Below are positions 6,064 through 46,205 of a stretch of DNA of 51,795 nt, one piece after another. Position numbers and translations under genes: made by a program. Source of the DNA: a virus (taxonomy: Duplodnaviria > Caudoviricetes); the IMG/VR virus record IMGVR_UViG_3300047201_000017, positions 1 to 51,795 of that record; one strand, 5' to 3'. Every line of letters begins with the position of its first letter. Position 1 is the stretch's first letter. The notes beneath the pieces were generated by a model. It had not been told where the DNA came from. It saw only the letters and a list, made by a program, of their open reading frames with translations, and did no database searches.

Positions 6064-8718
6064 GTGGATCTTAGCAACATACCATTAAGTGAGACAGACA
6101 AGAAGTTTTTCAACGACTGGGCTGGTTTCTTCAACCACCAGATGACGTGGTTCTACAAGCAGTTCCTCGCTCGCCAGGAGAAGATAATCTGTCTGTTCAC
6201 CGGCAACCAAAAAGGAAAGTGTTTTTCAATAAATTCAGTAGTCTATACCCCATCTGGAATTAAGTTTGCAGAAGATATTAAAACTGGAGACTTAATTCTG
6301 GGTGGGGAAGCATTAGTTGGCGAACCATTTGAGGATGATGTCTATGAAGTAAAATTTTCAAATGGAGTAAGCATTAAATGTAATAAAGAACATCCATTTT
6401 GGTGTAAAGATTACGGAAATGTCAATGATAAAACAGCAAGGTTTATCCCATTAGAAAATCTTACTGTTGGTAAGTATGTTTTATTTTCTCCTTCTAGTAG
6501 TTTTGATTTGGAAAGTATTTCTATCCAAGGGGCAAAGTTACTTGGTTATTTATGTTCCGATGGTTATTTAGGAAATGACAAACAGTCTCCTAAGTTTACT
6601 AATGGTAATTTAGTGTTTCTAAAGGAAGTATGGAAAGAAGCAAGAGAACTTTTTCCAGAATTAAAAGTATCTTGGAGAAAAAAAGGTAATGGATATGATT
6701 TATACTTAACAGATAGAAATCACCATACAAATAATAGACTAAAAGAATATATATTGTCGTTAGGAGTATCGAAAGAAAGTTTTGGTTCTATTGTTAATGG
6801 TGATACTCATTCTTTAGAAGAGTTTATAAAGGGATACTTTAATGGTGATGGATACTTACTTCTAAGAAAAAGAAAGAACGGTTGGTCGTCTTTACCATCT
6901 GTGGAAATTGGATTTTGTATTGGTAAAAGTAAAATAAAGGCATACGAGTTACAGTATATACTTTGGAAACTTGGTATTCAATCGTGGATTATTTCTGAAC
7001 GAATGAAGTTAAGTAAGTATGATTTTTGGAGAGTAAAAGTAACAGGAATTGGATTGGAAAAACTAATATCCATTTTGGATTGGACTAAGTATCCAAGTAA
7101 ATTTAAGGATGCTATTGATACACTTAGTCATAATAGGTTTAGGAAAAACTTTGCTGGTAATTGGGTTAGGATTAAATCAATAGAAAAAGGCGGGCAAGAT
7201 TTATTTGTTCCAATAACCACAACTAATGGTGAAATATATTCATCATGTGGTTTAAAAACACATAATACTGAGGATGTGGCACATCACTATTGGATGCGAC
7301 TATGGGGCAGACACCCTATTGCAAGCAAGAATATGCGTCCCGACAATCCATATAGGATCATAAGATGCGCATCTGCGGTTTTGCCTGCTGAACCTGAAGG
7401 TGGTGAAGTTAAGAACACTCAGTATCCTGCACTTAAACGAGTAATACCTCTTGGATATATTAAGAAAGACATTACTATTCGTAAACCCGTATTAACTGTC
7501 CGTGATCCTCAAGGTGGACCCGATGTGTATTTCGAGTTTGTTTCTTACAAGCAAGAAACGGGAGACATGGCAGGTGTACAGCGGTTTTCAGTATGGCTTG
7601 ATGAGAAGAGTGACAGATCGTTCTTTGAGGAACAGATACCAAGGTTGTTCTCTGCAAGTGGAGATTTGATCTACACACTTACGCCAGCAGATTATGGTAT
7701 CGGTTGGGAACACCATGACTTGTTCAGTAGAGCAAAAACAATCATTCGCAGTGATCCAGTATTACAGCGGTACAAAGACCGGTTCAATAAGATATATCCT
7801 AATACTTATTTGAATCCAGATGGTGACTTGGATTGTTGTATACTGATGGGGGCTACCGATGACAATCCTATTTATACTCCAGAGAAGATTTCTAAGGACA
7901 TGGAGATATATACCGAGGACATTATTGACATTCGCAGGTATGGCATATCTCGCCAGGCTACGGGTCAGATCTTTGAGGACTTCGATGTAGATGTGCATCA
8001 GATAGATGGAAACCAGTACTTCGATAGAGGTATGCACTCTGAATGGGTACATGCAAGGGGTATAGATTTTCACGAACATGTACCTTGGGCATGCGGGTTT
8101 ATTGCATTATCACCGCAGAATGAGGCGTTTATCTACGATGAGTTCAATCCCTCACCAGACAAGATGGTGACGTTGCAAATATGCAGAGAATTGGCTTATA
8201 AGTCTCAGATGTTCAATTACAAGTTATCGTTAATAGATCCGTGGTCATCCAAGAAGCAACCCAATACTGGATTATCGCCATTAGATGACATTAATAGAGC
8301 GTTCTACGAGTTCAGGCGTGAAGGTATATGTTCAGGTGGCTACTGGCAGACGTGGGACACCAAATCTGCTAAGGGTAGGAATGAGATTAAGTTGCGGTTG
8401 AAGAATGCAAGGTTGTGTGGTAAACCATTCAATAATAGAATTGTAAAGAACAATGGCAAGGAGGAGTATTTACCTACATTATGGATATTCCGAAGGTGTC
8501 ATGAGACAATCAATAGTTTTAAGAATTGGCGGTGGGAACAGTGGACTAATCGTGAGATGTTAGTGTCTAAGGACGAGAAAGATAAGCCGGAACAGAAATG
8601 GAGTCATTTCCCAATGGTCTATGAAGCCATATTCAAACATCCCGGGTTTAGCATTGGCAGGTTTAGCGAACCGTTTATTAAAAGACGTGAACCATACTAT
8701 CGAAGCATGAGTGTATAA
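6064..8718 (+). CDS. terL: Terminase large subunit, interrupted by an intein
   Basis: Walker A GNQKGK|T, Walker B VWLDE, DNP motif, RNase H-like nuclease ARGIDF; upstream of portal. Confidence 0.9.
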   Translation: MDLSNIPLSETDKKFFNDWAGFFNHQMTWFYKQFLARQEKIICLFTGNQKGKCFSINSVVYTPSGIKFAEDIKTGDLILGGEALVGEPFEDDVYEVKFSNGVSIKCNKEHPFWCKDYGNVNDKTARFIPLENLTVGKYVLFSPSSSFDLESISIQGAKLLGYLCSDGYLGNDKQSPKFTNGNLVFLKEVWKEARELFPELKVSWRKKGNGYDLYLTDRNHHTNNRLKEYILSLGVSKESFGSIVNGDTHSLEEFIKGYFNGDGYLLLRKRKNGWSSLPSVEIGFCIGKSKIKAYELQYILWKLGIQSWIISERMKLSKYDFWRVKVTGIGLEKLISILDWTKYPSKFKDAIDTLSHNRFRKNFAGNWVRIKSIEKGGQDLFVPITTTNGEIYSSCGLKTHNTEDVAHHYWMRLWGRHPIASKNMRPDNPYRIIRCASAVLPAEPEGGEVKNTQYPALKRVIPLGYIKKDITIRKPVLTVRDPQGGPDVYFEFVSYKQETGDMAGVQRFSVWLDEKSDRSFFEEQIPRLFSASGDLIYTLTPADYGIGWEHHDLFSRAKTIIRSDPVLQRYKDRFNKIYPNTYLNPDGDLDCCILMGATDDNPIYTPEKISKDMEIYTEDIIDIRRYGISRQATGQIFEDFDVDVHQIDGNQYFDRGMHSEWVHARGIDFHEHVPWACGFIALSPQNEAFIYDEFNPSPDKMVTLQICRELAYKSQMFNYKLSLIDPWSSKKQPNTGLSPLDDINRAFYEFRREGICSGGYWQTWDTKSAKGRNEIKLRLKNARLCGKPFNNRIVKNNGKEEYLPTLWIFRRCHETINSFKNWRWEQWTNREMLVSKDEKDKPEQKWSHFPMVYEAIFKHPGFSIGRFSEPFIKRREPYYRSMSV
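6220..7266 (+). mobile_element. Intein (349 aa) with LAGLIDADG homing endonuclease, inserted in the TerL Walker A motif
   Basis: Starts CFSINS, block B CNKEHPF, LAGLIDADG motifs LLGYLCSDG and FIKGYFNGDG, ends THN followed by +1 Thr. Confidence 0.92.
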
Positions 8719-8774
8719 CGCCATAAATAACCGGCGGGGTTTATTTCACCGTCTGGTTGATTGACTTGTTGTGT
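8713..8774 (-). mobile_element. attC: Integron attC site (62 bp) of the cassette
   Basis: Minus strand: R'' ACACAAC, 5 nt, L'' AATCAACC, hairpin, L' GGTTATT, 6 nt, R' GTTATAC; extrahelical G (8759) and T (8754) on the folding strand. Confidence 0.82.
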
Positions 8775-9125
8775 GGTTTTTTATTTTTCAGGAGATTTAT
8801 TATGTGTAGGATTTTTTATTCTTTCAAGATATTCATTAACCATTTTTTCTACCACAGGGTTAAGAACCAGAGGTGTTATCTCTTTGGGTTGTATCAATTT
8901 TTCATTCTCCGTTTGAAGTTTGATTATTTTTTGTTCTTGTTTCAACGTCTTATTCTCAAGTTTGAGTACTTTATTCTTAAGACCATCAATCTGTATTTGA
9001 AGTTTTATAATTTTTTGTTGAAGCGTTATTACCGTCTCTGGTTTGGGATTCGTGCTTTTTATTGGTTTGCTTTTCATGGTGTCCTCCTTGATCAAGATTT
9101 GGATTATTTAAATGATGATACACAA
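8719..9125 (-). mobile_element. Integron-type gene cassette (407 bp)
   Basis: Begins with TTGTGT after the upstream attC crossover G; its own R'' ACACAAC is the exact complement of GTTGTGT; a single SD-preceded ORF points toward its attC. Confidence 0.8.
8781..9077 (-). CDS. Cassette-borne 98-aa coiled-coil protein of unknown function
   Basis: SD AGGAGG (9088-9083), ATG 9077; heptad-rich QQKIIKLQ...KLENK; stop 6 nt before attC R''. Confidence 0.75.
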   Translation of the reverse strand: MKSKPIKSTNPKPETVITLQQKIIKLQIQIDGLKNKVLKLENKTLKQEQKIIKLQTENEKLIQPKEITPLVLNPVVEKMVNEYLERIKNPTHNKSPEK

Positions 9126-9176
9126 CGTAGAAATTAACCGTGGCTGTAAGCCATCGGTTGGATTGACTTGTTAGCA
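9120..9176 (-). mobile_element. attC: Second attC site (57 bp), orphan
   Basis: Minus strand: TGCTAAC AAGTC AATCCAACC GATGGCTTACAGCCAC GGTTAAT TTCTAC GTTGTGT; same AACAAGTCAATC arm as the first site; left arm one base longer than canonical. Confidence 0.75.
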
Positions 9177-9220
9177 GTTTTTAATAGAAAATTCTTATTT
9201 AGAATAATTTAGGAATTAAA

Positions 9221-11149
9221 ATGGAAGAACACAAATTCAAAGAAGACATTGAAAATGCAGTCGCAAGTATTGTTACTAACGAGTACAGTACTTCTAAGAC
9301 AAACCAGAACGCATCTAACTTAGAGTTTGAGTCTATTATAGACATCTTGGAATGCAAACGATCTGATAAAGATTATGATTGGATGGCGGATTACAAACTC
9401 AATGAATTGCCGTCTATAATTCTTACAGATGCGAGTGGGTGGGCAAACCAATACTTTCAGACAAGGGAATTTGTCAAGGCCAAATTAGAAGGTAATAACC
9501 CTGAAGATAAAGTAAAATGCCGTTCAGCCGAAAAGTTAATCAATACCATGCTTAACAATAGGGATATTCATCATTATCAAAAGTACATTCGTGGTCGAAC
9601 TATTAATTCTACATTTGGGCAGGTATATGCCGTATGTGAATGGAATCAGAAAACCAAACAGGTTATTGCAGGATATAAGGACGAATACGAAGCATTGAAT
9701 GTCGATACTGAAGGAAGGCCATTGGTTGATATGCAGAATCAGATTCCTGCGTATCGTACTAATAAGATTCCTGTTTACGAAACCGAACCAATCTATGATT
9801 TTTTCAATTATGATATTGTCGATCCAAGGAATGTGTTCACTGATGACAGGTATGTCTATTCCCTGCAAGATAAACGATACATAATAATTCGTAGTGAACG
9901 AACTTATGATGATTTAGTTGAGAACCAGGAGAAGTGTGGGTACATTAATCTCGATCTAGTAAAAGAAGCTATTAAGAACATTGGCGGGACGGAAACGTCT
10001 AAGGAAACGGTAAAAAAGAACGAGGATACTAGCGATGCGAACAAGACTCCTATTAAACCATTTGACACTATTGAACGGTGGGGAAAGTTTCCTTGTATAT
10101 CGAACAAGAACGAAATATCTCCTGGATATGACGCTTTTGGAGATAGGTTAGACAAATCGGAATTGAAAGAGTGCATTATTACTTTTGTTATTACTGGAAA
10201 CACTAAAATACTTATTAGGTTTCAGTTGAATCCGTACATAGACAGTAAGGGAAGAACATATAGACCAATAGTAAGAGGTCTTTGCTACATCCATCCAACC
10301 AAAGATACTGGTATTGGCGATGGCAAGTACCTTCGTGAGTCTGAGAAAGCCATTAACGATATGTTCAATATGGCTATGGATAGAACTAAACTAGCTACTT
10401 TGCCTACTCTTAAAGCCAGAAAGTTTTCCTTAGAAGGTAATACTTCTATTTTCTTTGCACCAGAAAACGTCATGGAAGTTGAGAATCCTGACGATATACA
10501 GGAGTTCAAGATAAGCGACGATATCCAAGGCGCATTGGAAATGATCAATATGCTCATGGGTAAGGGACATCAAGTAACGAGTGTTTATCCCGCATCTATG
10601 GGAGACATACCCGAAAAGGCATCTACGACAGCTACGGCATTCGCCGGTGCTCAAAGCAGTAGCAATATTCGTAGTAATTACAAGTCGCTTACGTACGAGT
10701 ACACATTCCATTCCGAGTTCTATTGGATGATGTTGCAGATGACGTACCAGTTCTGCCATCCCAAGACGGCATACGAACTGATGGGCGATGATGCACCTGA
10801 CTTCGATCCAAATCAGGACTACAATTATACTCCTGTATCGTCCAATATTGAGACTGAGTACAATAAGTACAACAAACTCAAGATGATAGACCAGTTTGTT
10901 GGCAGAGTAGTCAATGTTCCTAATCCTAATACTCCAAAGCTATTGAACTATCTGTTGAAGATGGCATTTGAGTTGTTTGACAAGGAATTTCCCGACTATA
11001 AAGAACATCTATTAGACGAGACTGTTCCGCCACCGATGGAAGGTCAGCAGGCAACGAGTAATCAGCCTAAGAATATAGGACAACCTCCGGTCAGCAACCA
11101 GAATATGCAACCAATGGGGTTACTTGAACAGTCTGTTAGGGGTATGTAG
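9221..11149 (+). CDS. Portal protein (P22/T7-like podovirus type)
   Basis: 642 aa after TerL; DPRNVFTD, GIGDGKYLRE..KAINDMFN, TATA motif, Gln/Pro-rich tail. Confidence 0.85.
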   Translation: MEEHKFKEDIENAVASIVTNEYSTSKTNQNASNLEFESIIDILECKRSDKDYDWMADYKLNELPSIILTDASGWANQYFQTREFVKAKLEGNNPEDKVKCRSAEKLINTMLNNRDIHHYQKYIRGRTINSTFGQVYAVCEWNQKTKQVIAGYKDEYEALNVDTEGRPLVDMQNQIPAYRTNKIPVYETEPIYDFFNYDIVDPRNVFTDDRYVYSLQDKRYIIIRSERTYDDLVENQEKCGYINLDLVKEAIKNIGGTETSKETVKKNEDTSDANKTPIKPFDTIERWGKFPCISNKNEISPGYDAFGDRLDKSELKECIITFVITGNTKILIRFQLNPYIDSKGRTYRPIVRGLCYIHPTKDTGIGDGKYLRESEKAINDMFNMAMDRTKLATLPTLKARKFSLEGNTSIFFAPENVMEVENPDDIQEFKISDDIQGALEMINMLMGKGHQVTSVYPASMGDIPEKASTTATAFAGAQSSSNIRSNYKSLTYEYTFHSEFYWMMLQMTYQFCHPKTAYELMGDDAPDFDPNQDYNYTPVSSNIETEYNKYNKLKMIDQFVGRVVNVPNPNTPKLLNYLLKMAFELFDKEFPDYKEHLLDETVPPPMEGQQATSNQPKNIGQPPVSNQNMQPMGLLEQSVRGM

Positions 11150-13647: not shown

Positions 13648-14574
13648 ATGAACCCAATGACATCAACTCAATTCATGCGTTTGCTGGACAAACGCCTGCG
13701 TGAAGTCACCGAAGGTCGATATGCTGACCTTCATAAGAAGTATTCTATGATAGACACTCTTTACCGCAAAGTTCAGTCAGACAGTGCGTTTGAAGAGTTC
13801 TATGATATTGGATCACTGCCTGACATTCCTGAGTTCACTGGCAAACTGGAGTACCTCTCGGTTGCTCCTGGATACCATATCAAGGTAGAACCCAAGGAAT
13901 ATGCTGGTGCGACCCAGTATGAACGTAAACTTCTGGACGACAAGAAGTATCCGGCGTTAGATTCTAGGGCAGAAGCACTTGCCGAGTCGTACCATCGTGT
14001 CGAAGAGAAGTTTGCCGCTAGACCGTTTGCGTATGCTTTTAGTAACTCGTTTGACTTTATGACGAGTGAGGAGAACCTTAGTCTATGCAATACGGCACAT
14101 ACAACCAAGTCTGGAACGTCTACTGCAAACGGGTTTTCTAATGCTGGTACTTCGGCATTGAGCAAGACTTCAGTAGCCGCAACTAGAATCCTGATGCGTA
14201 AGTTCAGGAACGACGTTTCCGAACGCATTATCATCAATCCTGACACTTTGATTGTGCCAGACAATCTTGTTTATACTGCAACGGAAATTGTAGGGACTGA
14301 AAAGGGACTGAACTCCGCTGAAGGTACGATTAACGTACATTACAAACAGTTCAAGGTTATTCCTTATCTTCGTTTGGATGACTATGACACTAACAACTGG
14401 TTCATGGTTGATATGGAACTGATGAAGAAACTCTTGATCTGGATTAATCGAATTTCTCCTGAGACAAATAACACTATAGATTGGGAAACCTTTATGATTA
14501 AGGAATCCATCTATGGTAGGTTCGGTAATGGGTTTTTAGATTGGCGTTTCGTCTATGGCCACAATGTTTCATAA
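13648..14574 (+). CDS. Major capsid protein (Mu gpT-like, HK97 fold)
   Basis: 308 aa; PDTLIVPDNL, PYL...NNWF, RFGNGFLDWRFVYG end typical of gpT-like capsids. Confidence 0.85.
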   Translation: MNPMTSTQFMRLLDKRLREVTEGRYADLHKKYSMIDTLYRKVQSDSAFEEFYDIGSLPDIPEFTGKLEYLSVAPGYHIKVEPKEYAGATQYERKLLDDKKYPALDSRAEALAESYHRVEEKFAARPFAYAFSNSFDFMTSEENLSLCNTAHTTKSGTSTANGFSNAGTSALSKTSVAATRILMRKFRNDVSERIIINPDTLIVPDNLVYTATEIVGTEKGLNSAEGTINVHYKQFKVIPYLRLDDYDTNNWFMVDMELMKKLLIWINRISPETNNTIDWETFMIKESIYGRFGNGFLDWRFVYGHNVS

Positions 14575-30144: not shown

Positions 30145-30729
30145 TTATGATTCTATTCCGTTCCCCCATTGATTCCATCCCTCTCTTTTGTGGCGTGCGA
30201 AAACTTCAAGATAAGGACCTGGGCTACATGCTTCAATAATTGGATAGAGTTCGTCAGGTTTATGCGAATGTTCTCTTTTGCGTGATGATATGATGTTGAC
30301 CTGCCTTCTTCCGGGTTGGAAAGTTCTAAGGTGACCCCTGACTCCAAATAAGACAACCTCTGTTACGTTACGGAAATAAAATCCTACACCTCTTCCGTCA
30401 GGCCCTCCATCCTTACGGATTTTATACCAGATAATATTTGTCTTGTAAGTGAATCCCCATCGCTTCATTACCTCCAAACCTTCCAGGATGAGAGCATTAG
30501 GAATCCAAAGGTAAAGATGGCTTTGGGGTAATACAAGCTGTGCAATAGGAAGTTCATTAATCTCCTGGAAAGTCATGGTAGGGTATCTTGATAGTCTTTT
30601 ATGTTCTGGTGCCATTTTCCCAGTCCGGTTGGCAAAACGCCATGGCGGATCGGCAAGGATAGTTCCGAATTTTCCAAAACCTTGAGACAACAAATCTTCT
30701 GTTGCGGATTTTTCAGGATTCTTCGTCAT
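30145..30729 (-). CDS. MT-A70 family N6-adenine DNA methyltransferase
   Basis: ILADPPW, HLYLW, KREHSHKPDE, YLEVFAR; probable start ATG 30729 overlapping the REase remnant. Confidence 0.9.
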   Translation of the reverse strand: MTKNPEKSATEDLLSQGFGKFGTILADPPWRFANRTGKMAPEHKRLSRYPTMTFQEINELPIAQLVLPQSHLYLWIPNALILEGLEVMKRWGFTYKTNIIWYKIRKDGGPDGRGVGFYFRNVTEVVLFGVRGHLRTFQPGRRQVNIISSRKREHSHKPDELYPIIEACSPGPYLEVFARHKREGWNQWGNGIES

Positions 30730-30892
30730 ATAATGCTTTTGAGATTCCAAACACAAGGATTGGGCATCCTCCGCCTCCACCGCCTTCAATACGGGGCAAA
30801 AGTTTTCCCATCCATGTTGTTGACATTCCGAATTTGTCCCATATTTCTTTTCCAAGGTTTTTAAACACTGGAATTAAGTCATCGGAATACAT
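30713..30892 (-). pseudogene. C-terminal remnant (59 aa) of a BglII/BstYI-family type II restriction endonuclease
   Basis: MYSDDLIPVFKNLGKEIWDKFGMSTTWMGKLLPRIEGGGGGGCPILVFGISKALYDEES*; STT.M.KLLPRIEGGGGGGCPILVFGI recalled as the C-terminus of REases paired with MT-A70 genes. Confidence 0.75.
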
Positions 30893-34518: not shown

Positions 34519-35658
34519 TTATTTAACCATGCAAATGACATCCTCAAAATCAATTCTTGGAGATCCTTTCTTTTCGGCTAGTCGCCTAAAGAAAGACTTT
34601 CTTTCAGTGATTATCTTCTCATCTTCTCCAAACAGATTCCCTTTTGTGCCGTGATCCTGTATCAATGAGGCTTGATGCCAACAGACAATCTTAAATCCTA
34701 CCGATTCGCATAGGGTTGCCCAACGATCGGAAAATGGAACAATTTGTTTATTATTTATATAATTTTTCGTTACCCATATCGCATGACCTCCTGGTTTCAA
34801 TAGGTCATAGCATCCCTGCACTATTTCTTTGCTTGCCTGCCAGAAGGTATCACCGGAAGTGTTGCCGAGGTTGTTTAAATCATCAGAATAACTTCCAGAT
34901 AGACCGTCAAGGCTAATATTTTTATGTTTAAGACGATCATGCTTACAGTTAGATTTTGAAAGGTCCAATCCGTGACCAGAGGATGATATCGCATTTTCAT
35001 ACGGCGGACTACTCACCACGGCATCAAATTGACCCTCCTTCATGGAACCGAGTTGTCCGGGTGATTGACCATAAGGTCTTTTTATATTTGCATAACCCTC
35101 ATCTAATTTTTTCTTCCAGGAAGGTCTGTAGTTTGGGTTATCGGGATTCCCTCGATCATTACTTGTCATGTGGGTTTGCTCTACTGGAGTTTGAGCATAA
35201 GGCGGACTTGATACAATTAACCCCGCTTCCGAGCGCCTTTTGCCCATATTTTCTGCCTTAAAAGAGTCATTCCTATTTATTTCCAATAACTTAGAAAGAG
35301 CGCCTTTTAGATTTCTTGAATCCCCCTGAATAATCCTTGCCGTCCCCAAATTCGGCCAATCCCTGAACTTGCGATTCCAAAGGTCAATGTTCTGCTGGCC
35401 TAACTTTACGAATTTAGGCTCCAACTCTATCCCGATCCAATTTAGGCCATTGATAAGGCTATGGAGGGCACCAAGGGCAACCCCCCCAAATGGATCAATT
35501 ACTGTATCTCCAGCTTTCACCCACCCCATTTTTAAGACGTGGTCATAGATTTTGCCTATTAAAGCACAAGAAAATTTGGCTGGATGGCAAAACGCCTCTG
35601 GTACTATGTTCCCTTGCCAACCGCTGGTATAACATCCATTCCAAATGTCTTTATTCAT
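34519..35658 (-). CDS. Amino (N4-C/N6-A) DNA methyltransferase with duplicated SPPY motif
   Basis: HPAKF, DPFGG (motif I), GIELE, QGDSR, IVSSPPY and VVSSPPY, LLKPGG. Confidence 0.85.
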   Translation of the reverse strand: MNKDIWNGCYTSGWQGNIVPEAFCHPAKFSCALIGKIYDHVLKMGWVKAGDTVIDPFGGVALGALHSLINGLNWIGIELEPKFVKLGQQNIDLWNRKFRDWPNLGTARIIQGDSRNLKGALSKLLEINRNDSFKAENMGKRRSEAGLIVSSPPYAQTPVEQTHMTSNDRGNPDNPNYRPSWKKKLDEGYANIKRPYGQSPGQLGSMKEGQFDAVVSSPPYENAISSSGHGLDLSKSNCKHDRLKHKNISLDGLSGSYSDDLNNLGNTSGDTFWQASKEIVQGCYDLLKPGGHAIWVTKNYINNKQIVPFSDRWATLCESVGFKIVCWHQASLIQDHGTKGNLFGEDEKIITERKSFFRRLAEKKGSPRIDFEDVICMVK

Positions 35659-42657: not shown

Positions 42658-43494
42658 TTATTTCCGGAACCCTTCTAAAATGTAGTTCCAGTCTAGTTTA
42701 ATACTTCCATGTTTCTTGATGTATCTTGTTATGGTATCCGAGGAACACCGTGCCAGGAACGAAGTGCTAGTCAAAGGATCGTCTTTGTCATCTTGGCTAA
42801 TAAAACTAATCTGCGGTAGTATAGGATTCATTCCCTCATCATACTTGAACGGCTCCTTAATATATCCAATAAAATCAAATAAGCCATGAAGATGCTGAGG
42901 ATAGATTTTGCCCTGAAGGAATGGACCGATGGTGATCCCCCCACCATACCGCTTGCCGGCATTGCTATCCTCAATACTCGTACAAATAACCAACACTTCA
43001 TATTTAGAAAACTGAGTCAGTAGTTGAGTTATCCGAACCATTAGTTCTCCTAATGATCCGTAATCCGTCTGCTCTGTTCTTGTGAAATCAATCAATCCAC
43101 GATATTTACTTATACCATCTTTGTCTTTGGTTTCCTTTAACACCTCCCTTCTGGAGTCCTGTAACTCCTTCATGACGTCCGTCTGACCAAATGTTAGATC
43201 ATCAAAGAATACCGTCTTGTACTTAAACTCTCCTTTCTTGCAGTTTTCTAATTCATCATTCAAAGTTCCTTGCAAATCCTCAAAGTCATTGGCAGATGAA
43301 TACCTAAAGTCCTCTGGTTTCCATAACGGACTTTGAGAATGGATAATACGAGGATCTTTCTGTTGGGTGTTGATAAACCATACTGGCTTTGGGCAATAGA
43401 GGCCAGACATGGTTTTGCCACATCCCGTCTTGCCATATTCTAATGCACTAAAAACCAATTCACTTCTGTCAATATTGCTTTCGTACTCGTTCAT
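42658..43494 (-). CDS. AAA_24/Sak4-like ATPase (ssDNA annealing protein)
   Basis: YGKTGCGKT, YKTVFFDDLT, DYG, P.LQGK, FDFIGY. Confidence 0.75.
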   Translation of the reverse strand: MNEYESNIDRSELVFSALEYGKTGCGKTMSGLYCPKPVWFINTQQKDPRIIHSQSPLWKPEDFRYSSANDFEDLQGTLNDELENCKKGEFKYKTVFFDDLTFGQTDVMKELQDSRREVLKETKDKDGISKYRGLIDFTRTEQTDYGSLGELMVRITQLLTQFSKYEVLVICTSIEDSNAGKRYGGGITIGPFLQGKIYPQHLHGLFDFIGYIKEPFKYDEGMNPILPQISFISQDDKDDPLTSTSFLARCSSDTITRYIKKHGSIKLDWNYILEGFRK

Positions 43495-45230: not shown

Positions 45231-46205
45231 TTACTTAAAATCTTGCGTGGAAACATTCTTGAATTCCCTTTTCTTGTAAATCGTTTTGCTTACTACACCC
45301 GAAGAACAAACGTCAATGAATTGGCACTTGAAACAGTTATCTCTATTGGAAGTCTGATAGTATTTCTCTTTGTCTGAGCCAAGAGAATACATCTCTTGTG
45401 CTGTCAATCGCAACTTCTCTTTTAATAGTTCCAAGTCAAATTCATTCCTCCAGAATGACATTTCCATAATATAATGATTGGGTTGCCTAAGAACATCCTT
45501 TTTCACCCTTGATACAAAATCTTCCTTCGTTTCCTCTTTTCCCTTTTTGAAGTTGGGAACTCTCAATGCTCTGACCGTTATCCGTTGCAGTTCAGGGTTA
45601 CCGAGGAAATAAATTCCTAACTGTGGTTCCATAATGAACTTCTTCATATAGAATTCCGGTGATGCAGAATACTTGAACTCATAACCCGCAGTGCCATCTA
45701 AACAAACCAAGTCCGTGAATCCGTGTACTCTTGGGTATTCTGGTTCTTGGAAAATAAACTCCTTCTCCGTTTCACCCTTGAGTTCAGCATACACCAAAGT
45801 GCAGTAAGCCAAGAAGAAACCCTCCATGAGCAATAATTCACGAGGGATCTCACTTTTATCAAACGATAAGTCTTTGAATTTGTCTTGATATGCTTTGATG
45901 ATGTCGAACGCTTCATTGATACTGCCCTCCTTTTTATGCACTTCCCCCAAAACTTGAGAGGCGATCTTGCCCATAATCAATCGTACAGTAGGATCAATCA
46001 ACTTCAATCCTTCGATCCAACTCATCCAATATTTGTATCGGCAAACGTAATAATCCTTTAGAGCGGAATGCGAAAGAGAAGGTTCGTGACAAGCAATGTA
46101 TTCCAAACATCGGAATTGGGATTTTAAAGTGCAAAATCCACTTTTCAGATAGTAGGAACAAGGTAGTTTAGATCGGTTAATGTTTGGGCAAGTCAAATGA
46201 TACAA
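45231..46205 (-). CDS. PD-(D/E)XK exonuclease (Cas4/RecB-like)
   Basis: LSHSAL..Y..C..KY, HGFTDL, YEFKY, QLGIY, CFKCQFIDVC. Confidence 0.8.
   Translation of the reverse strand: MYHLTCPNINRSKLPCSYYLKSGFCTLKSQFRCLEYIACHEPSLSHSALKDYYVCRYKYWMSWIEGLKLIDPTVRLIMGKIASQVLGEVHKKEGSINEAFDIIKAYQDKFKDLSFDKSEIPRELLLMEGFFLAYCTLVYAELKGETEKEFIFQEPEYPRVHGFTDLVCLDGTAGYEFKYSASPEFYMKKFIMEPQLGIYFLGNPELQRITVRALRVPNFKKGKEETKEDFVSRVKKDVLRQPNHYIMEMSFWRNEFDLELLKEKLRLTAQEMYSLGSDKEKYYQTSNRDNCFKCQFIDVCSSGVVSKTIYKKREFKNVSTQDFK

Follow-up and report, generated by a model that had tools for sequence, protein, structure and literature searches.

Integron components have been described from a short list of phages. In the survey of Qi et al. 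(2023; PMC9892861), they were reported from 21 phages, including 17 with clusters of attC sites lacking a nearby integrase (CALINs), each with at least two attC sites. When six attC sites from three virulent phages were tested, two of those examined being from Tetrasphaera phage TJE1, five were found to integrate into attI1 via IntI1, and the idea that phages disseminate cassettes was already stated in that report. The definition of a CALIN as two or more close attC sites without a nearby integrase is taken here from Qi et al. and from the preprint of Loot et al. (10.1101/2022.09.11.507474); the latter gives two-attC clusters as the commonest CALIN size and documents IntI-driven insertion at GWT genome sites, termed attG. 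The present analysis concerns an interval within IMG/VR virus record IMGVR_UViG_3300047201_000017, an uncultured freshwater-sediment phage of 51,795 bases (the whole stretch, hereafter the window) estimated to be 97% complete. The interval is interpreted, with a probability of about 0.88, as a two-attC CALIN in a tailed-phage genome, that is, an integron cassette with two attC sites lying antisense between the genes for the large terminase (terL) and the portal protein. A preliminary description of this DNA, made from its letters alone, had proposed for it a new phage-integron exchange route; this was overstated, as the 2023 survey (PMC9892861) had already reported CALINs in phages and shown that IntI1 recognizes them, and no new category is involved. 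What is particular here is the antisense position in the packaging and head block, a junction at the terL stop codon, and a cassette family that can be traced.

The cluster is made up of one upstream attC site (attC_A) and one complete cassette, the latter comprising a 5' leader, an open reading frame (ORF) for a 98-aa coiled-coil protein, and its own attC site (attC_B):

9120..9176, minus strand: attC_A, upstream attC whose owner cassette is absent, from R'' TGCTAAC to R' G|TTGTGT
8719..9125, minus strand: gene cassette of 407 nt, bounded by G|TT crossover points at 9126|9125 and 8719|8718
8781..9077, minus strand: cassette ORF for a 98-aa coiled coil that resembles a leucine zipper; its C-terminal motif, H-[DN]-x-[PS]-P, is common to the homologs
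8713..8774, minus strand: attC_B, the cassette's own attC, from R'' ACACAAC to R' G|TTATAC

Read along the minus strand, attC_A presents R'' TGCTAAC, 5 nt, L'' AATCCAACCG, a loop, L' CGGTTAATT, 5 nt (5-6 nt depending on register), and R' GTTGTGT, while attC_B presents R'' ACACAAC, 5 nt, L'', a loop, L', 6 nt, and R' GTTATAC. The two sites are separated by 345 nt and have AACAAGTCAATC in common, exact copies of which occur in the window only at these two places. Both possess the AAC and GTT cores of inverted core sites, and the model alignment and folds revealed the imperfect L''/L' repeats, spacers of approximately 5-6 nt, and extrahelical bases of an attC site. At each, a top-strand C (bottom-strand G) is unpaired at the L-box bulge and a T is unpaired in the bottom-strand stem. 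In the fold of the plus (bottom) strand of attC_A, the unpaired T falls in the 3' arm and the G stands opposite the unpaired top-strand C; the bottom strand of attC_B has the extrahelical T with either an A/G mismatch or a G bulge, a weaker arrangement. The two minus-strand palindromes of attC geometry proposed earlier were thus confirmed in coordinates and form, and the extrahelical G and T on the folding strand were seen in the folds, less distinctly at attC_B.

A single ORF and its attC on the same strand constitute a gene cassette, and such a unit is present here: a Shine-Dalgarno sequence (AAGGAGG, 9089-9083) precedes the ATG at 9077 by 5 nt, the ORF is directed at attC_B, and the distance from the R' box of attC_A to the ATG is 43 nt. 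In an integron array, the six bases past G|TT are the start of the following cassette, and they are expected to be complementary to the R'' of that same cassette. The start of this cassette, TTGTGT, complements its R'' ACACAAC at 4/4 variable positions. On both counts, the 407-bp unit with its Shine-Dalgarno-preceded ORF and the start-R'' complementarity, the preliminary description was borne out.

Both sites were recognized by a covariance model (R1) for which 23 attC sites were taken from cassette arrays in metagenomes and none from the window, with a proposed structure consisting of an AAC/GTT helix and a bulged L-box helix. The structure is backed by covariation; 88.6% of the alignment cells are paired compared to 72.2% in shuffles and 17-41% in slid controls, and the 45 double-change cells (14.7 in shuffles) were equaled in 0/500 shuffles. 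With the model run over the full 51.8-kb window with filters off, its E-values being rough owing to a short calibration, attC_A was matched at 53.2 bits (E 3e-12) and attC_B at 37.7 bits (E 5.5e-8), each at full length and on the minus strand, and the next-best of the 21 matches listed scored 12 bits (E 0.71). A scan of positions 8400-9500 against Rfam at E<=10 returned two chance-level matches only and no attC family. A crude regular-expression attC finder, being too noisy in the window, was dropped for the covariance model.

That R1 is a model of integron attC sites follows from three controls, namely cassette arrays, the neighborhoods of IntI genes, and phage TJE1. Across 17 scanned loci (16 of the 17 metagenome loci described below, L024 being omitted as a duplicate, together with L036), 44 sites were found at E<=0.01, 43 on the strand of the ORF homolog and one on the opposite strand, spaced a few hundred nt apart as in arrays. 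A Syntrophales metagenome-assembled genome (MAG; G001) encodes three IntI that score 433.6, 433.4, and 409.2 bits with TIGR02249 (cut-off 265), at positions 55260-56210, 738775-739716, and 936440-937381 of its contig C1. Beside each of these genes, within 14-kb stretches, two to three R1 sites at E<=0.1 were found, all with the placement and strand to be expected of cassettes that are read away from intI. The same MAG also holds, on another contig, a separate attC cluster with a homolog of the window's cassette ORF (L036). In TJE1, three matches with E<0.01 (30.8-36 bits) fall at the start of the record just after an annotated terminator, the sole other match below E 1 being in the same region at 11.5 bits (E 0.92); the positions fit the CALIN as published, which has three attC sites and follows a terminator, the comparison being with this description rather than with coordinates (Qi et al., 2023; PMC9892861).

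Homologs of the cassette ORF numbered 26 in metagenome protein sets, and 17 metagenome loci holding them were retrieved; around the ORF, L024 duplicates L023 and L028 duplicates L027, and L034 and L035 are weak matches of 37 residues. None of the other window proteins of at least 60 aa was found in those 17 loci, where only the ORF and the frame antisense to it matched. Around the homologs are elements of the form ...YAAC-5 nt-stem-loop-stem-5/6 nt-GTT..., and an R1 match follows the ORF stop within 165 nt in 10 of the 13 distinct loci; in two of the three others the contig runs out no more than 45 nt past the stop, and L032 simply has none. A match also precedes the ATG by 40-49 nt in seven of the 13, the distance being 43 nt in five of these and 40 and 49 nt in the others. 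When DNA of the window was aligned with that of L019, L020, L022, and L025, unrelated upstream sequences gave way to an invariant GTTGTGT, a conserved leader, Shine-Dalgarno sequence, ORF and stop, and an invariant ACACAAC, after which the similarity among the five fades. The same cassette therefore resides in different arrays with its similarity bounded at the crossover point. Complementarity between cassette start and R'' was observed at 4/4 positions in 15/20 consecutive pairs from eight distinct loci, and at three or more positions in 18/20, compared to 4/4 in 19/380 mismatched combinations.

The attC type itself has a wider distribution. Many contigs in four freshwater-sediment runs (X1-X4) share only the attC_A core, with 4-6 differences over 35-43 nt and unrelated flanks, and the depth in the bin 9107-9177 rises to 215, 81, 337, and 22 in the four runs; this attC type is therefore common in other cassettes of the same communities. 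As its best explanation, the cassette derives from an integron array of bacteria, of a kind common in the same freshwater sediments. The exact attC pattern was found in three MAG contigs (assigned to Nocardioides, Nitrospira, and an 'archaeon'), two of them with R1 matches, which is too scattered to name a host; the small ORF was not found in viral contigs. One 1.1-kb scaffold (L107), binned as an archaeon MAG, a doubtful binning for so short a contig, carries two of the top-scoring sites of this attC family on its minus strand (533-588 and 849-905; 53.5 and 65.1 bits).

The window is a phage, as the virus record is 97% complete and encodes a portal protein, a major head protein, and an intein-split terL in the absence of any tyrosine recombinase. 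Its plus-strand genes occupy approximately 0.1-30 kb and its minus-strand genes 30-51 kb. The preliminary description had reported no IntI in this genome and had placed the cassette between terL and portal, and both points hold: in six frames of the 51.8-kb window, neither PF00589 nor TIGR02249 had a match at E<=1, and an intein-split Walker A terminase and an SU10-type portal flank the insert. The locus thus lacks the intI gene beside the array that marks a complete integron, as befits a CALIN. The features around the cassette are:

6064..8718, plus strand: terL, 884 aa, probable large terminase; its TAA stop (8716-8718) lies inside the R' box of attC_B
6220..7266, plus strand: intein in terL, 349 aa (C53-N401), with LAGLIDADG PF14528 matches of 26.6-29.8 bits, above cut-off
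9177..9220, no strand: spacer of 44 nt, 13.6% GC, with the portal ribosome-binding site; a non-canonical junction
9221..11149, plus strand: portal, 642 aa; PF23899 SU10_portal 38.3 bits (cut-off 30), phrog_1216
13648-14574: major-head-protein match in PHROGs

The P-loop (Walker A) of terL reads GNQKGK|C...HN|T, split by the intein between K and T, and PHROGs gave a weak terL match (phrog_19299). The intein is context and lies outside the cassette; relatives align to terL residues 18-52 and then 403-869, it is absent from L003, L004, L008, and L014, and in L001 and L015/L017 there appear to be terL inserts at other positions.

The insert is not a chimera, since contigs from runs X3 and X1 bridge both of its junctions with 0-1 differences. 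Eight freshwater-sediment runs hold the stretch, with no RNA holder listed, and contigs were compared from four, of which X1 may be the source sample and whose studies may represent one campaign. An X3 contig (8640-8830, one difference) crosses the terL/attC_B junction, and that between attC_A and the portal side is crossed by two contigs free of differences, one from X3 (9064-9366) and one from X1 (8718-10000). Excised, empty-site, or alternative forms were not among the contigs of the four runs, nor was the cassette-skipping joint that the preliminary description had proposed to seek, but contigs are blind to rare variants and thus uninformative on excision. One X3 contig contains a joint at attC_A that goes back 51 nt, from 9174 to 9124.

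Of the two junctions, that on the terL side fits G|TT: the TAA stop is the complement of the TTA following the G of the attC_B R' box. The encoded C-terminus has native length in comparison with ten relatives, ending five residues past a conserved P-x-Y-Y compared to 5-6 residues in the closer ones (L001-L007 and L015), and the G|TT of attC_B can thus be said to abut an intact terL stop. The junction on the portal side is not a canonical crossover, because the 44 nt contain neither GTT nor TTAGCA, the complement of the attC_A R'' TGCTAAC with which the cassette of attC_A would be expected to start.

The nearest relatives are 17 IMG/VR loci with portals 37-49% identical. The interval between terL and portal, visible in 16 of them, holds a plus-strand gene of approximately 50 aa in 11, a repeat-rich spacer of 91 nt in two, and nothing in the three where terL abuts portal. 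The small gene (L001-L008, L014, L015, and L017) encodes two CxxC pairs and is zinc-ribbon-like; an extra 110 nt or so precedes it in L003 and L014. The cassette ORF is absent from all 17 loci, and no R1 match at E<=1 was found in their 152 kb. Given these differing contents and the 17 relatives without ORF or attC, the slot is variable and the cassette, as far as seen, specific to the window's lineage. The comparison of this interval among relatives, suggested at the outset, therefore upheld the variation of the slot but produced no second cassette or attC. Neither the interval nor the portal had a match in DNA and protein searches of a GenBank phage collection, and the portal had none in genome contigs.

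Like the phage CALINs of Qi et al. (2023; PMC9892861), of which TJE1 is an example, the locus combines cassette ORFs with at least two attC sites that point the same way, and it lacks an integron integrase in a phage that itself has no integrase. It differs in having a single cassette placed antisense between terL and portal in the head-packaging block, whereas the TJE1 matches are at the record start after a terminator, approximately 12 kb from the TJE1 terL; the cargo is a coiled-coil protein rather than a methyltransferase, and the phage is uncultured. With the isolated cassettes (SALINs and small CALINs) made in bacterial genomes by IntI at attG (10.1101/2022.09.11.507474), it shares the location of cassettes far from an integrase and a G|TT junction that fits the GWT core; here, a phage genome was the target, CACT stands in place of the right-hand CRGM motif, and the second junction is non-canonical. 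The chromosomal arrays (L019-L033 and the Syntrophales MAG with three IntI) have the same attC and cassette family, including the prevailing R'-ATG distance, but the window has no intI and no recognized attI or Pc, and its two sites only are placed inside viral structural genes. Judged by titles and abstracts, no other paper devoted to attC sites in phage genomes was found, and the terL-portal position was not found described in the literature compared, which did not extend to the supplementary tables of Qi et al. (PMC9892861).

Several observations weigh against the interpretation of the interval as a CALIN of bacterial origin that entered by IntI. The source sites of R1 adjoin homologs of the same cassette, and the attC_B match is partly plain homology; attC_B carries two non-standard pairs in the model alignment, and the R boxes of the two sites depart at 1-2 positions from the strict consensus RYYYAAC/GTTRRRY as given by Qi et al. 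(2023; PMC9892861). The minimum free energies of the bottom strands, -8.8 kcal/mol for attC_A and -6.0 kcal/mol for attC_B, are weak against a mean of -11.9 kcal/mol for the 23 reference sites, only five and two of which, respectively, fold equally weakly or more so; shuffle z-scores of the bare hairpins are -2.2 and -0.5. To these are added the missing GTT and TTAGCA of the 44-nt spacer and the finding that TTATAC/GTTATAC also serves as cassette start and R' box in array L028, with unrelated sequence after it, so that the last terL codons and stop could be donor-derived and the G|TT fit on the terL side illusory or coincidental. Among GenBank phages, IMG/VR, and genome contigs, no close relative was found whose slot is empty or differently filled. 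Finally, no promoter-like site was found upstream of the ORF (overall 4, with 4.5 expected by chance), and a terminator-like hairpin, that of attC_A, lies upstream of it on the same strand.

T4-type phage morons and mobile promoter-stem-loop cassettes also place a small accessory ORF with repeated hairpins between conserved genes. Were the interval unrelated to integrons, a phage moron enclosed by ordinary paired hairpins or terminators or else a phage-specific repeat of the promoter-stem-loop type, a terminator-like call such as that made on the minus strand at the attC_A core (none at attC_B; 0.6 expected by chance), the TTGACT box adjoining each hairpin on the plus strand, and the want of an Rfam match would be accommodated. 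This view is already contradicted and is given a very small chance: unlike in those systems, the hairpins meet the attC model and the unit ends at the integron crossover point, its boundaries falling at G|TT; moreover, the element occurs only twice in the window, promoter-like sites are no more numerous than by chance, and R1 also detects IntI-adjacent arrays and the three sites at the described TJE1 CALIN. It is just as improbable that the cassette lies outside the phage genome through misassembly or bacterial contamination. The attC k-mers are indeed repeated in these metagenomes, which is the simplest cause of the contig breaks near 8706/8718 in X1, but the X3 contigs extend at least 31 nt to each side of both junctions with 0-1 differences, the X1 contig runs from 8718 to 10000 free of them, and phage genes flank the 460-nt insert on both sides. 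An unlikely, though less easily dismissed, alternative is that the attC pair are decaying relics that no integrase can use, the cassette being fixed as inert cargo or domesticated as a phage gene. The weak folds at the low end of the reference sites, the non-standard pairs of attC_B, the lack of an integrase in the phage, and the lack of an excised form among contigs, with the limit on rare variants given above, would all be in keeping with decay. Against it, the scores of the two sites exceed those of the three TJE1 sites, two TJE1 attC sites are counted among the five recombined by IntI1 (PMC9892861), and the AAC/GTT cores, spacers, and extrahelical positions are intact.

More finely balanced is the route by which the CALIN entered. 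The identity of the element would be the same had a fragment of a host array, beginning with attC_A and reaching a few bases into the following cassette, been captured by illegitimate or microhomology recombination in the manner of a moron, the G|TT at the terL stop then being accidental. Such capture would account for the non-canonical junction on the portal side, GTTATAC is a normal R' of this attC family with a cognate GTATAAC cassette after it in L028, and illegitimate or off-target homologous recombination is what Qi et al. (PMC9892861) propose for phage CALINs; native terL length with the stop exactly at the crossover and the documented insertion by IntI at GWT genome sites (Loot et al., 10.1101/2022.09.11.507474) argue against it, and it is held to be possible but not the favored route. 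Entry mediated by IntI with a later trimming deletion is taken to be the most likely course, at about even odds, and the small remaining share goes to routes of neither kind. In this scheme, the phage would replicate in an integron-bearing host whose IntI recombines the folded bottom strand of attC; the target would be a GTT site immediately past the terL stop, or an attC already there, and a later deletion independent of IntI would trim the portal side. The GTT past the stop with its complementary TAA/TTA is such a pattern as an IntI crossover would leave. Delivery by a host IntI, as had been suggested from the letters alone, is accordingly plausible, with one junction that fits and one that does not.

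Because both sites keep the R- and L-box architecture, attC_A and attC_B are predicted, with somewhat better than even confidence, to recombine in a host with a compatible IntI. By recombination between them, a 407-nt circle would be released and one hybrid attC would stay behind, and incoming cassettes could also insert at the attC sites. The earlier suggestion of a retained attC as a landing pad is plausible; no alternative form was present in the contigs of four runs, and the 17 relatives have no attC. The stronger proposal, that the phage keeps a working two-attC platform in its packaging and head operon at which the integrases of successive hosts swap cassettes, is considered improbable; if true, the cargo between terL and portal would be hypervariable, and a phage without an integrase, probably a virulent one, would serve as a vehicle for cassettes between bacterial lineages. 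More modestly, the locus is a clean sequence-level addition to the phages with integron components, with the bacterial relatives of its cassette, its exact boundaries, and its attC family all traceable. It shows that integron cargo can occupy the core packaging and head block of an environmental phage, and were the sites active, the phage could move cassettes between hosts.

The minus-strand 98-aa ORF is the only well-supported gene between terL and portal. Its product has leucines every seven residues (L19, L26, L33, L40, L54, and L61), and an AlphaFold2 prediction from the family alignment yielded helices at residues 13-62 and 74-88 with a mean pLDDT of 81 (93-98 over residues 21-60); a dimeric leucine zipper without an enzymatic domain is the probable form of the protein. 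Pfam and PHROGs returned sub-threshold coiled-coil matches only, the Protein Atlas generic coiled-coil neighbors all under 0.9, and family and structure searches no functional lead. With no promoter-like site ahead of it and attC_A terminator-like on its strand, expression of the ORF in the phage is doubtful, and it may be silent cargo. Base composition sets no foreign mark on the cassette (ORF 30% GC, phage 38%, homologs 30-37%). Overlapping the ORF is an antisense frame, which is similar across loci:

8757-9137, plus strand: antisense frame of 126 aa

This frame was rejected as a real gene, having stops in 5/12 homologous copies (open in 7/12) and a lower synonymous share, whereas the minus-strand ORF is open in 12/12. 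Over an ungapped core of 55 codons, synonymous differences were most numerous in the minus frame, 570 vs. 473, with the third position varying most. The antisense frame is probably a by-product of the K/Q/E/L-rich codons of the coiled coil.

Two other IMG/VR contigs each gave a pair of R1 matches. On a 16-kb contig (L082), two on the minus strand (69-130 and 857-946; 36 and 34 bits) are directly upstream of terL (phrog_2, E 3e-30) and a P22-like portal (496 bits), making this a second phage with the same attC type by its packaging genes. On a 75-kb contig (L081), plus-strand matches at 682-739 and 1591-1648 (51.8 and 39.2 bits) bracket a reverse PAPS-reductase-like ORF (phrog_424); an 872-aa protein that bears an intein and matches terL weakly ends approximately 0.5 kb from them. 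L094 has one further match of 31.7 bits. L081 and L082 offer a hint that the neighborhood of packaging genes may be a recurrent landing zone.

Elsewhere in the window, the phage encodes two DNA methyltransferases on the minus strand (30145-30855 and 34519-35658; MT-A70 106 bits and N6_N4_Mtase 45.5 bits), an AAA_24 protein (42658-43494), and a PD-(D/E)XK nuclease (45231-46205). No attC model match flanks any of these genes. At the left end of the record, 803-1822 on the plus strand encodes a 339-aa protein with two DUF285 repeats (169 bits) and a PKD domain.

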